Below are positions 33,001-36,000 of a stretch of 64,000 nt of DNA, one piece after another. The stretch is from Candidatus Babelota bacterium (GTDB lineage Bacteria > Babelota > Babeliae > Babelales > Vermiphilaceae). The stretch is from positions 32,001 to 96,000 of the forward strand of contig JBMOLF010000007.1 in NCBI GenBank assembly GCA_049325595.1. Direction: 5' to 3'. A program made the position numbers. Position 1 is the stretch's first letter; each line of letters starts with the position of its first letter.

Positions 33001-36000
33001 CCGAAGAGGGTGGATCACTTACTATTATTGCCACCGCGTTAATTGATACCGGTTCTCGTATGGATGAAGTAATCTATGAAGAATTTAAGGGTACTGGTAA
33101 CCTTGAAATGCACATGACTCGTAAGTTATCTAACCGTCGTATTTACCCAGCATTTGATTTACTCATGTCTGGCACACGTCGTGAAGATCTCTTGCTTTCT
33201 GAAGAAGATCTTAACAAAGTATGGATTCTACAGAAATTCTTAGCGACTATGAGCACTATCGAAGGTATGGAGTTCTTGATTGATAAGATGAAGAAAACCA
33301 AAACAAATCGTGAATTCATAGAAAGCATAAATAAGAAAACGGTTCCTACTGCTTCTTAATATTGATTATAATGATGTATGCAGGTTAGTAAAAAAGCCTG
33401 CATACACTTATAAAATACGTGGTAGTATATGAAATGGATTCTTTGCTTTATTTTTTTTTCTTTTTTGGAAAGTGCTTGTCAAGAACAAGAGTTGCACTCA
33501 AAACCTTTTGAATCATATTTGTTAACACAAATTGAAGAAAATGAAGCTCATCAAAAAACCTATCTAGAGTTTTTAAAAAAACAAAAACAAAAATCTAATC
33601 AGGCATTCTGTTCTGAATTATTTTATAAAGAAACAAAATTTTTTTTGTATGGCTTATATTGCGTCCAAACTTTGATTGAAAAAGATTTAAATAAATCGTT
33701 TTTTTATATTGAACAGCATCTTTATGCTGCCGCGGATTTACAAAAGGCATTATGTAGCCTTAAAGCTGGAATTATTCAAACATTATGGGATAATCATTGC
33801 TTCCTATCGCATATTGAGACTGCAACGCATTATCAAAAAAAAGGGTATGGTTCGTGTTTGATGGGCCATTTAGAGGCATTAGCTCGAAATGCACACTGTG
33901 AAAAAATTATTTTAGACTCAAAACAGGAAGCTGTTCAATTTTATGAAAAATTGGGATTTAAACAAGATTATGATCGAGATAGTTCGTACGATAATTGCAT
34001 AGCGATGGTGAAATATTTAAATGAGAGGAAAAAATAATGATACTAGTACTTATGGCTCTAATATCACTAACTATGATTGCGCAAGAAAAGCCCTTAATTA
34101 ATTATTTAAATGAAAAACAATATCGCAAGCTTGATGTATCTAATAGTAGTTTTGCTTCTCACCAAATTTATTGTAAGAATGAAGAATACAACACCAATTC
34201 ATTAGTACTCAAAAATACATGGATAATTAATAAACATACTTGCTGTGGCAATAAAATATTGATAGACCAAAATAATCAAGAATTATTTTGTGGAATAGAG
34301 ATAAAAAATGTTGATAACCATCCATGTTGTTATATAACCCTCAATTATGATGGTATGGATAAGCATTATTTTACTCTGATACAACAAAAGCTCGAAGAAG
34401 AGCTTATGGCAGCAGAAGTTTCTTTGATTAAAGGTGAAATAATAGACGGTGAACTGGAATTTTATGAAAAGCTTGGATTTAAATTAGATGACCAAAAAAA
34501 TGCCCTTCCCCTATGTAAAAAAATTATAAAAGAGCTTAACCAAGCAAGCAATTCTCCTGCTATTTCAAAATATCAAGAGACAAGTCAGAAAATTCGCCGT
34601 GCTGCGCTCGATAGTTTCCTACATACGCAATCATAGCGGCGTTATCAGTGCAGTATTTAGGAGAAGGCCAATAAAGCGACAAGCCATGAGTGTTACACCA
34701 TTCTTGTAAATGGTATTTAATATATTTGTTGCACGCAACGCCACCAACAAAGGTAACAGCTTTTATTGCAGGATATAGGTGGTGTGCTCGTGCAATTTTT
34801 TGAATAAAAATATCTTTGATTGCAACGAGTAATGAACTACATACTTTATTAATAAATTGGTCATCACCAGCACGTAAAAACGTTTTTGTTTGCATGTCAT
34901 ATGCTTTTTGTTTTACTAGATCATACAAAACAGCGGTTTTAAGACCAGAAAAACTAAAATCAAGTGAATTACTTGTTGAGCGTGGATAAGAAAAATAATC
35001 CTCAAAATGTGCCTGTGCAGCGCGTTGTTCAATTATAGGGCCACCAGGATAACCAAGACCTAGTAATTTTGCTACTTTATCAAATGCTTCACCTGCCGCG
35101 TCGTCGGCTGTTTGACCAATAATTTGATATTTACCAAAATCTTCTACTAAGTAGAGTGATGTATGTCCACCAGAAGCAGTTAAACATACATGAGGAAATG
35201 GAATGTTATGCTCTAAAAAAGCTGAAAAAGCATGTCCTTCTAAATGATTTACACCAATTAACTTTTTTTGTTTTGACCAGGCTAGCGCCTTAGCAAAGCA
35301 CACACCAATTAACAAAGATCCTGGCAAACCAGGTTTGTTAGTAACCGCTATAACATCAATATCATCTAGGGTTATCTTTGCTTGTTCTAACGCATGAGCT
35401 ACAATGGTATTTATTTTTTCAAGATGTGCACGAGATGCAATTTCGGGTACCACACCACCATAATTTTGATGGAGAGCAATCTGTGAAAATAATACATTTG
35501 ATAAAATACCACGTTGAGCATCATAGACTGCGGCAGCAGTTTCATCGCACGATGTTTCTATACCAAGGGTAAAGCGAATGCGGTTGTTTTCCATTAGAAA
35601 TTGAATGCTACTATTGTTTTAGGGTGTGCAAATTGTTTTACTTCTTGTCTGATATTGGCATGAATAGTATCTAAATCAAGCGCCGAGATTAAAATTTTTG
35701 CCGATTCTTGATGGAGCTTTTCTTCTGAGCCAGTAATTTTTAAAACATCAGGTTTTACAATGATTTTAGGAAATTCAAATGAGCTACCCCCGTCGAGCCG
35801 TTCAACAAACGTAGGCTCATAGCAAACGATGATGGTATCGTCAGGAAGTCTACCATTTTGAGGCAACTCAATTTCCTTGATAAGCCATTTATAAACCATT
35901 GTTGCATTATTTTTTTGCTCGACGTTATCAGTTTTTTCTTCTGGAATTAATACTAATTCAATGGCATAAAACTTATAGGGCTCTGTAGGGTTTATTTTAA

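Follow-up and report, generated by a model that had tools for sequence, protein, structure and literature searches.

TsaC/Sua5, which makes threonylcarbamoyl-AMP (TC-AMP) for the tRNA modification t6A, is counted among the ~60 truly universal proteins (PMC10321239), and a 2014 survey reported TsaC or TsaC2 in all 9,176 bacterial genomes (PMC4615747). The canonical bacterial pathway, as in E. coli, B. subtilis and T. maritima, combines TsaC or TsaC2/Sua5 with the transferase proteins TsaB, TsaD and TsaE (TsaBDE), for which TC-AMP is the sole substrate known. Several systems that depart from this scheme are in print. Nanoarchaeum equitans keeps the KEOPS complex without Sua5, a paradox published in 2023, and Nanobdella aerobiophila is described in the same paper as likewise being without Sua5/TsaC (PMC10321239). 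The authors proposed that the host supplies either TC-AMP or the enzyme, and suggested reading the absence as a sign of symbiosis or parasitism; they judged a transfer of TC-AMP unlikely at ~90 degrees C (PMC10321239). For Buchnera aphidicola BCc, tsaC is listed as not present, and the co-symbiont Serratia symbiotica carries it (PMC9035817). In the Plasmodium apicoplast, which has Tcs3b, no Tcs2/Sua5 is reported as detected in the compartment, and the first t6A step is left unexplained (PMC4615747). Lastly, mitochondria pair a TsaD-type transferase of bacterial descent (Qri7/OSGEPL1) with a host-encoded source of TC-AMP, the nuclear Sua5/YRDC (PMC5951830).

Here, we analyzed a window of 64,000 nucleotides (the whole stretch of DNA under study) from a Candidatus Babelota genome, hereafter G000, whose assembly is 94.96% complete in 24 contigs. 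The window holds tsaD, tsaB and a conserved open reading frame next to tsaD; tsaE lies on another contig.

34560..35594, minus strand: tsaD, 344 amino acids, intact; catalytic subunit of the t6A transferase, matching TIGR03723 and PF00814
14689..15357, minus strand: tsaB, 222 amino acids; dimerization subunit, TIGR03725 at 81.5 bits against a cut-off of 69.3
G000:C10, L001:1456-1896 (other contig), plus strand: tsaE, 146 amino acids; TIGR00150 at 93.8 bits against a cut-off of 60.1
35594..36334, minus strand: conserved ORF directly upstream of tsaD, overlapping the tsaD start; signal peptide or membrane anchor

All three Tsa proteins score above their NCBIfam equivalog cut-offs, the window TsaD with 390.6 bits against 296.1 for TIGR03723. 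In the Pfam scan it matches PF00814 with an E-value of 1.3e-93, and its E-value is the fourth-lowest among the matches listed for the phylum. It aligns end to end with TsaD chains of known structure, with 8iey_A at E 1.2e-82 and with 4ydu_A at E 5.2e-78. Its motifs, namely SCDET (residues 15-19), HLEGH (117-121), SGGHT (141-145), DDAAGEAFDK (164-173), GGVACN (284-289) and CTDNAAMIA (315-323), coincide in the alignment with those of 8iey_A and 4wq5_A. The HxxxH and late Asp motifs, which by the E. coli and T. maritima structures we take to be metal ligands, and the ASKHA nucleotide-pocket motifs are kept in 41 of 41 aligned TsaD sequences of the phylum. By its sequence, the window TsaD is a member of the TIGR03723 equivalog and is predicted to transfer threonylcarbamoyl from TC-AMP to A37.

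G000 thus shares TsaBDE with the canonical pathway, and also the U36-A37-A38 context of the tRNA substrates (see below). A complete t6A pathway would add a TsaC/Sua5 with the K-R-S-N tetrad to the partners TsaB and TsaE; both partners are encoded, and the synthase is not. The genome therefore fits the N. equitans-type class, that is, no Sua5/TsaC and a retained transferase complex. Like N. equitans, G000 has a small genome and is probably host-dependent, as predicted from the literature on the phylum (PMC4378268, PMC4776705) and from its universal NTT carriers. Unlike N. equitans and N. aerobiophila, which are archaeal ectosymbionts of an archaeon living at ~90 degrees C, the present organisms are bacteria with TsaBDE. 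In the case of the Plasmodium apicoplast, the compartment is an organelle of a eukaryote and the enzyme is of the Kae1 type, whereas we are dealing with a free-replicating bacterium. Mitochondria import the enzyme, and Qri7 needs neither TsaB nor TsaE; by contrast, both are kept here and no protein import is known.

The initial annotation had stated that G000 keeps TsaB, TsaD and TsaE while TsaC/Sua5 is gone, and family scans, HMMs, hhalign and a contiguous syntenic slot bear this out. PF01300 yielded no candidate in G000 at E<=10 and matched in 14 of 14 control genomes. TIGR00057 gave at best an E-value of 0.077, at C9:56020-56136, antisense within a gene of 368 amino acids, and we took this match to be due to chance; PF16861, the TobZ-type C domain, had no match in the genome. 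HMMs specific to the phylum were built from 29 of its own TsaC/Sua5 proteins and applied with --max to 17,650 six-frame segments of G000. Their best E-value was 0.085 (C11:34444-34545), a segment of 34 amino acids that we likewise regarded as a chance match. An hhalign comparison of the TsaC profile with 1,297 ORFs of G000 reached a probability of 15.8% at best, compared to 100% for a control TsaC.

In four TsaC-bearing relatives (G202, G193, G108 and G238), the gene sits in a conserved order of folC-like gene, tsaC and pilin gene. K.R and SAN are preserved in the TsaC of relatives that encode it, and long Sua5 forms also occur in the phylum. The corresponding slot of G000 lies within one contig, spans 1957 bp and has an LRR gene in place of tsaC. 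In the one-contig sister genome G246 the slot is 666 bp long, and the earlier observation that neither genome has a tsaC ORF beside the folC-like gene thus holds. Elsewhere in the phylum, contiguous slots without tsaC measure 442 bp (G201, with no N in it), 233 bp (G109) and 171 bp (G237). No TsaC remnant was found in any of these five slots. Since the syntenic slot is contiguous and yet without tsaC, the gene is truly lost from G000, and no assembly gap is involved.

Next, we examined how TsaC and its partners are distributed across the phylum. In 189 good genomes, TsaD was found in all 189, TsaB in 187, TsaE in 186 and TsaC in 120. The first enzyme, present in the canonical systems, was therefore found in neither TsaC form in 69 of the 189, roughly four in ten. 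Counting genomes that are at least 90% complete (n = 191), TsaC is missing in 72; TsaD and TsaE are encoded in 72 of these 72 and TsaB in 71. The co-occurrence of TsaD with TsaC loss, previously read off two separate tables, is hereby established genome by genome. Half of the genomes with no more than two contigs (18 of 36) are without TsaC, and 11 of those 18 consist of a single contig. With the same search, 154 of 261 relatives and all 14 controls gave a TsaC. Presence is uneven among taxonomic groups, with one of 41 genomes in f2, none of six in f15 and one of eight in f20 (the f20 match at E 0.0075). A zero for SUA5 in Babela, to which the initial annotation had pointed, is indeed in print, as a COG0009 count of zero at row 438 of supplement file 2 (PMC4378268).

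Genomes without TsaC have a median size of 1.2 Mb and those with TsaC one of 1.1 Mb, and the losses do not go hand in hand with extreme genome reduction. In this respect the phylum differs from Buchnera BCc, a single, extremely reduced genome, in that size does not differ between the two classes; its TsaC-less members resemble that symbiont in being bacteria without tsaC and with the gene available in a partner, which here would be the eukaryotic host. Because contiguous slots without tsaC are seen in G000, G246, G201, G109 and G237, the gene was deleted independently at least four times. TsaC status is mixed inside seven genera, and 39 genera are TsaC-less; part of the losses are recent, within genera. 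This repeated loss, polymorphic within genera, sets the phylum apart from N. equitans. Pairs of genomes with and without tsaC exist within genera. Verified pairs, with the TsaC-bearing member first, are G108/G109, G238/G237 and G193/G201. A TsaD tree was also considered for counting losses: its best version implies 15 changes and its well-supported branches alone force at least five, but 20 of 38 inner branches are open. The tree was set aside as poorly resolved, and the loss count therefore rests on the synteny pairs.

TsaD shows no relaxation where TsaC is lost. Against the TsaD equivalog model, TsaC-less genomes reach a median -log10 E of 110.9 and TsaC-bearing ones a median of 110.1. An alignment of 41 sequences (21 TsaC-less, 20 TsaC-bearing) has 81 invariant columns in the former and 90 in the latter, all catalytic motifs are retained in both classes, and only two columns are looser without TsaC. 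Between G000 and G246, tsaD shows a pN of 0.08-0.11 and a pS of 0.69-1.0. TsaD is under purifying selection, and its conservation is the same whether or not TsaC is present. In G000, moreover, A37 and A38 are present in 13 of 13 ANN-reading tRNAs (U36). An intact, selected TsaBDE without TsaC would need TC-AMP from outside or from a new source; these same data make it unlikely that the genes are relics, a caveat raised at the outset, or that tsaC was simply missed.

We tentatively favor the explanation that t6A synthesis continues with TC-AMP provided by the host. Own synthesis of the activated donor would have been lost, and a normal TsaB-TsaD-TsaE complex would still place t6A37 on ANN-reading tRNAs. 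The Sua5/YRDC of the eukaryotic host would release free TC-AMP into the cytosol, and the likeliest entry would be of TC-AMP itself through an NTT-type nucleotide carrier. If such a supply was already open to the ancestor, tsaC would have become dispensable and would have been deleted again and again. That losses are not tied to genome reduction fits a donor supply open to the whole phylum. Members of the phylum are described as intracellular parasites of protists (PMC4378268, PMC4776705). NTT-type carriers occur in 189 of 189 good genomes and in 257 of 261 overall, the NTT paralogs of G000 lying at C23:8328-9674 and C23:10164-11141; Yeoh et al. describe the TM6 NTTs as monophyletic, with paralogs altered at key residues, "possibly also to other substrates" (PMC4776705). 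As precedents, host supply has been put forward for N. equitans (PMC10321239), and an entry of cytoplasmic TC-AMP into mitochondria has been speculated upon in print (PMC5951830).

Several observations weigh against a host supply. Babela reportedly multiplies within a vacuole (PMC4378268), so the donor would need to pass several membranes. A TsaC with the K-R-S-N tetrad is kept in ~63% of good genomes, so own TC-AMP synthesis is still worthwhile in most lineages. We know of no TC-AMP carrier in any organism. Among carrier families, neither MCF nor NTT tracks tsaC loss across the phylum. MCF carriers were found in 36 of 261 genomes of both TsaC classes, are absent from most TsaC-less lineages and have one weak match in G000, where the MCF-like ORF is on C10; as their presence is unrelated to TsaC loss, we rejected them as a marker of TC-AMP import. 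Four within-genus pairs were also compared for NTT matches, with up to five candidates scored per genome, and among the matches listed the TsaC-less and TsaC-bearing members had at least three versus at least four, at least three versus at least five, at least four versus at least five, and at least eight versus at least seven. Among these listed matches there is no rise without TsaC, and an extra NTT paralog shows no link to the loss.

A rather unlikely alternative is that some function unrelated to t6A maintains TsaB, TsaD and TsaE, or that they make only traces of t6A, and that unmodified A37 is tolerated. Other phenotypes have been ascribed to TsaD/Gcp, and Thiaville in 2015 reportedly found t6A to be dispensable in some bacteria. 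Against this stand the retention of the three proteins in 71 or 72 of 72 genomes, over at least four verified independent losses and 39 TsaC-less genera, and the equal conservation of TsaD in both classes, which extends to its metal motifs (HxxxH and D) and to those of the nucleotide pocket. Purifying selection within a TsaC-less genus and the U36-A37-A38 context in all 13 ANN tRNAs argue in the same direction. Furthermore, we know of no t6A-independent activity that needs TsaB, TsaD and TsaE together.

More doubtful still is an ancestral bacterial route to TC-AMP of another kind, either through a non-YrdC enzyme or through TsaBDE adenylating N-carboxy-threonine itself. With such a route in place, tsaC could have been deleted at least four times without a visible replacement. 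The idea draws on the lability of TC-AMP and the several membranes it would have to cross if imported, on the full conservation of TsaBDE without TsaC, and on the many ORFs of G000 without a known family. However, no YrdC-like protein was found at profile level in the 1,297 ORFs, nor a TobZ-type C domain; where tsaC was deleted in G109, G237 and G201, 171-442 bp remain and nothing has been inserted; and TsaC-less lineages show no systematic change in TsaD.

The surroundings of tsaD offer no candidate for such a synthase either, as no ORF family near it is specific to TsaC-less genomes. The ORF at 35594..36334 is 73% identical to its G246 counterpart, and its family adjoins tsaD in 19 of 21 TsaC-less and 19 of 20 TsaC-bearing genomes. 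A count with merged clusters gave 20 of 21 and 19 of 20, respectively. The ORF has no Pfam match, and a search of the ESM Atlas returned nothing at >=0.9. Its AF2 model (pLDDT 87.8) has an all-beta body, and no clear fold match was found in the PDB (best Foldseek E-value 0.068, best VIA wide Z 4.0). The product is thus predicted to be a secreted beta-sandwich rather than an alpha/beta nucleotide-binding fold. Since both TsaC classes carry the family and the model does not resemble a YrdC fold, we rejected the ORF as a hidden synthase or importer. The initial annotation had offered host uptake or a new synthase as the two readings: the need for an outside or new source stands, and no carrier or tsaD neighbor was found that tracks the loss.

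It is very improbable that the host Sua5/YRDC enzyme itself is imported, as into mitochondria, and makes TC-AMP inside the bacterium. Enzyme import is the favored idea for N. equitans (PMC10321239), and mitochondria do take in Sua5/YRDC, yeast mitochondria receiving an isoform of Sua5 and human mitochondria part of the YRDC (PMC10321239, PMC5951830). The loci that we examined give no pointer to import machinery, and losses that are recent within genera leave little time to evolve protein import. To our knowledge, no machinery is known that imports host proteins into a free-replicating parasitic bacterium.

Equally remote is a TsaC that is present but was missed, whether through strong divergence, failed assembly or location on an unbinned replicon: G000 is incomplete, the set consists mostly of metagenome bins and 1,544 bases are withheld in the G201 sequence, but against this stand the eleven single-contig genomes, the five contiguous slots (that of G201 free of N), the success of the same search in relatives and controls, the empty HMM and hhalign searches, and an absence that follows taxonomy (f2, f15, f20).

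The initial claim that either host uptake or a new synthase would be new for t6A was too strong, as precedents are in print for N. equitans, Buchnera BCc and the Plasmodium apicoplast. The new element is the occurrence in bacteria with TsaBDE, in mesophiles that parasitize eukaryotes and have lost the gene many times independently, in part recently; we found no paper that describes TsaBDE without TsaC in bacteria as a repeated, phylum-wide pattern. Collectively, our results show that TsaC is dispensable across one bacterial phylum, unlike the other components of the t6A machinery. They raise the question of whether a labile TC-AMP passes from a host to a resident cell, or whether there is a second way of making it. 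Babela, a member of the phylum, is reported to have been isolated and cultivated together with amoebae. The finding also matters for the use of TsaC as a universal marker, and for the choice of t6A enzymes as drug targets in intracellular bacteria.

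The genome under study (1,286,077 bases in 24 contigs, 94.96% complete), of which the window covers C7:32001-96000, carries all three genes for threonylcarbamoyl transfer in t6A synthesis, and each product scored above its equivalog cut-off:

tsaD, window 34560..35594, minus strand: 344 aa; TIGR03723 (NCBIfam TsaD equivalog), 390.6 bits against a cut-off of 296.1; PF00814, E = 1.3e-93
tsaB, window 14689..15357, minus strand: 222 aa; TIGR03725, 81.5 bits against a cut-off of 69.3
tsaE, contig C10, L001:1456-1896: 146 aa; TIGR00150, 93.8 bits against a cut-off of 60.1

Solved TsaD chains aligned to this TsaD over its full length (8iey_A, E = 1.2e-82; E. 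coli-type 4ydu_A, E = 5.2e-78). It carries the motifs SCDET (15-19), HLEGH (117-121), SGGHT (141-145), DDAAGEAFDK (164-173), GGVACN (284-289) and CTDNAAMIA (315-323), among which we take the metal-binding residues to be those assigned in TsaD structures of E. coli and T. maritima. All 13 tRNAs with U36, among the 38 tRNAs found, have A37 and A38. We also noted several ORFs in these regions. At window 33429-34636 (plus strand), the stop of a 202-aa GNAT acetyltransferase ORF overlaps the start of the next, a 199-aa ORF that has no Pfam match, a C-terminal end that looks GNAT-tail-like by eye, and a 3' end overlapping that of tsaD on the opposite strand. Directly upstream of tsaE (L001:865-1440, plus strand of contig C10) lies a 191-aa ORF with no NCBIfam match, the N-terminus of which resembles an NYN/YacP nuclease by eye. 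Window 2400-4315 (plus strand) holds three ORFs in a row with signal-like N-termini; the last two, of 247 and 246 aa, look like a paralogous pair.

The initial annotation held that TsaB, TsaD and TsaE are kept while TsaC/Sua5, which makes threonylcarbamoyl-AMP (TC-AMP), is gone; our searches confirmed and extended this. PF01300 gave no candidate at E ≤ 10 in this genome and was positive in 14 of 14 control genomes. The single TIGR00057 match (E = 0.077) lay antisense within a 368-aa gene, and PF16861 (TobZ-type YrdC-like domain) had no match. Three HMMs built from 29 TsaC/Sua5 proteins of the phylum, run with speed filters off against 17,650 six-frame stop-to-stop segments (≥30 aa), found at best a 34-aa piece (E = 0.085, 12 bits). 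When the phylum TsaC alignment was compared by hhalign with 1,297 ORFs (≥110 aa), the top probability was 15.8% over 37 columns; the positive control, a relative's TsaC (G108) outside the profile, reached 100% (E = 7e-50). That a TsaC is present and was missed is therefore very improbable, the more so given the contiguous gene order at its expected locus.

In the TsaC-bearing relatives G202, G193 and G238 (family f1) and G108 (family f14), tsaC is flanked on one side by a divergent folC-like Mur-ligase gene and on the other by a gene for a type IV pilin. Both flanks are on one contig, with tsaC missing between them, in five TsaC-less genomes:

This genome (G000): 1,957 bp, occupied by a leucine-rich-repeat gene of 454 aa plus a small ORF
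G246 (sister species, assembled in one contig): 666 bp
G201: 442 bp, no N
G109: 233 bp
G237: 171 bp

No TsaC remnant was found in any of the five spacers (best E values 0.11 to 0.8). The earlier description of a folC-like neighborhood with tsaC in G202 and none in G000 or G246 thus holds, with contiguous flanks, and synteny settles that the absence is not an assembly artefact. In the TsaD tree, each of G109, G237 and G201 pairs with a TsaC-bearing sister genome (support 93, 98 and 98); with the genus of G000 and G246 added, the independent deletions number at least four. The leucine-rich-repeat gene of the G000 slot (L041:6102-7466 = G000:C1:146102-147466, minus strand) has an F-box-like ORF nearby (L041:4170-5144), and both are eukaryote-type repeat genes inserted where the gene was lost.

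Next, we scanned 261 genomes of the phylum, of which 189 were good (≥90% complete and ≤5% contaminated).

Genomes with a match, all and good
TsaC/Sua5 (PF01300, E ≤ 0.01): 154 of 261; 120 of 189
TsaD: 251 of 261; 189 of 189
TsaE: 244 of 261; 186 of 189
TsaB: 251 of 261; 187 of 189

The three good genomes without TsaE all bear TsaC. A per-genome table (completeness ≥90% after rounding, no contamination filter; 191 genomes), which scores the marginal PF01300 matches of G074 (E = 1.3e-5) and G173 (E = 0.0075) as lacking, showed TsaC absent in 72 genomes. TsaD and TsaE were found in 72 of these 72 and TsaB in 71, the exception being G176 (160 contigs); retention of TsaD alongside TsaC loss, earlier inferred from two tables, therefore holds genome by genome. 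Half of the genomes with at most two contigs (18/36) are TsaC-less, 11 of those 18 being single-contig. Among genera with a good genome, TsaC is always present in 68, never in 39 and mixed in 7. The TsaC-less genera are spread over 12 of 19 families, with TsaC in 1 of 41 genomes of one family and 0 of 6 of another. Median genome size does not differ (1.2 Mb without TsaC, 1.1 Mb with it, p = 0.70). The catalytic tetrad K.R + SAN is kept in ≥90% of the 29 TsaC/Sua5 proteins of bearers, which are therefore not YciO-like paralogs. A long Sua5 form (322-348 aa) replaces the short TsaC (about 210-230 aa) in 14 genomes, and a 15th strong match, in G076, is a 186-aa open frame. G068 and G132 have both forms, the two matches of G081 are both long, at 339 and 544 aa, and G046 has a long Sua5, with none in its congener G045. 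The long form could be a re-acquisition by gene transfer after loss.

The caveat that TsaBDE may be relics was not borne out. The median -log10 E of the TsaD equivalog match was 110.9 without TsaC (n = 72) and 110.1 with it (n = 119; p = 0.12). We compared TsaD from 20 TsaC-less and 20 TsaC-bearing genomes, hand-picked across families from ~150 listed places rather than sampled at random, and added that of G000. TsaD was intact in 41 of 41 and every catalytic motif was kept in both sets. Invariant columns numbered 81 without TsaC and 90 with it; only two columns conserved at ≥95% with TsaC fell below 80% without it. Between G000 and G246, tsaD differs at 0.08-0.11 per non-synonymous site and 0.69-1.0 per synonymous site, the latter saturated. 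Against this, the G246 tsaD (L047/L048, G246:C1:1016166-1017124) is broken near codon 108, where a run of C carries a -1 frameshift. Its halves are equally conserved and TsaC-bearing G247 shows a similar split; the frameshift probably reflects either an error of sequencing or a break of very recent date. Overall, sequence conservation argues that TsaBDE is not a relic.

We then searched for a replacement or import gene. Across the 41 genomes, no ORF family lying up to 2.5 kb from tsaD was specific to the TsaC-less ones. Directly upstream lies one conserved neighbor:

ORF, window 35594..36334, minus strand: overlaps the tsaD start; signal peptide or membrane anchor; no Pfam match

It adjoins tsaD in 38 of 41 genomes (19/21 TsaC-less, 19/20 TsaC-bearing). 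Its AF2 model, which is confident (pLDDT 87.8, pTM 0.81), has an all-beta body and a C-terminal helix, with no clear relative among PDB folds (Foldseek best E 0.068, VIA best Z 4.0). The all-beta model and its presence in both TsaC classes ruled it out as an overlooked YrdC-fold enzyme. Mitochondrial-carrier-family proteins, which have been described for Babela (PMC4378268), are restricted to 36 of 261 genomes, of both TsaC classes; G000 has a weak carrier-like ORF (C10:252727-252864) within a 292-aa open frame. NTT-type nucleotide carriers are present in 257 of 261 genomes (189/189 good); in four within-genus pairs, among the matches listed, the TsaC-less member had no excess of them. G000 has two such NTT/TLC-type genes in tandem (C23:8328-11141, L052-L054). 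These results point to no particular gene. As none of the families examined tracks TsaC loss, the data fit a supply route common to the whole phylum.

In the most economical account, which we place a little short of an even chance, TsaBDE would still make t6A and the TC-AMP donor would come from the host. We hold it no higher because TC-AMP import is, to our knowledge, unproven in any organism, TC-AMP is short-lived, Babela is vacuolar, and mitochondria solve the same donor problem by importing the enzyme. Lauhon in 2012 and Perrochia in 2013 reportedly found that TC-AMP diffuses freely between Sua5/YRDC and KEOPS. Eukaryotic Sua5/YRDC makes TC-AMP for KEOPS, a separate transferase complex (PMC5951830). 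Nucleotides enter phylum members via NTT carriers of ancestral origin, in some of which key residues are changed (PMC4776705), and Babela is described as growing inside a vacuole (PMC4378268). Another role of TsaBDE, or an absence of t6A, seems unlikely beside the equal conservation of TsaD with and without TsaC. An unrecognised bacterial route to TC-AMP, for which the gene search offered no candidate, is somewhat less likely again, and import of the host enzyme (Sua5/YRDC), the mitochondrial solution, is highly doubtful. The initial proposal (host-made TC-AMP or host Sua5, or a new synthase) is supported in part: a phylum-shared supply fits the data, and no gene is indicated for it.

A survey from 2014 detected TsaC or TsaC2 in 9,176 of 9,176 bacterial genomes (PMC4615747), Buchnera BCc is recorded as lacking tsaC (PMC9035817), and N. 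equitans and Nanobdella are named as the only cultured cases without Sua5/TsaC (PMC10321239). The authors of the last, noting that N. equitans retains KEOPS, propose that the host provides either TC-AMP or the enzyme itself; a missing Sua5/TsaC, they suggest, may be a sign of symbiotic or parasitic life. For Babela, the zero that the initial annotation cited is indeed in a supplementary table (COG0009 = 0, file 2, row 438; COG0533 = 1, row 205) and is undiscussed in the main text, where 'tRNA modification' does not occur (PMC4378268); Yeoh et al. (PMC4776705) mention neither Sua5 nor YrdC nor threonylcarbamoyl. In a search thin on subscription journals and bioRxiv supplements, this zero was all we found that links the phylum to TsaC, Sua5 or YrdC. 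The claim of novelty for t6A therefore stands in part: the paradox is of the same kind as that already described for the nanoarchaeon N. equitans, whereas the phylum's case is bacterial and much larger, and its organisms allow the paradox to be tested.
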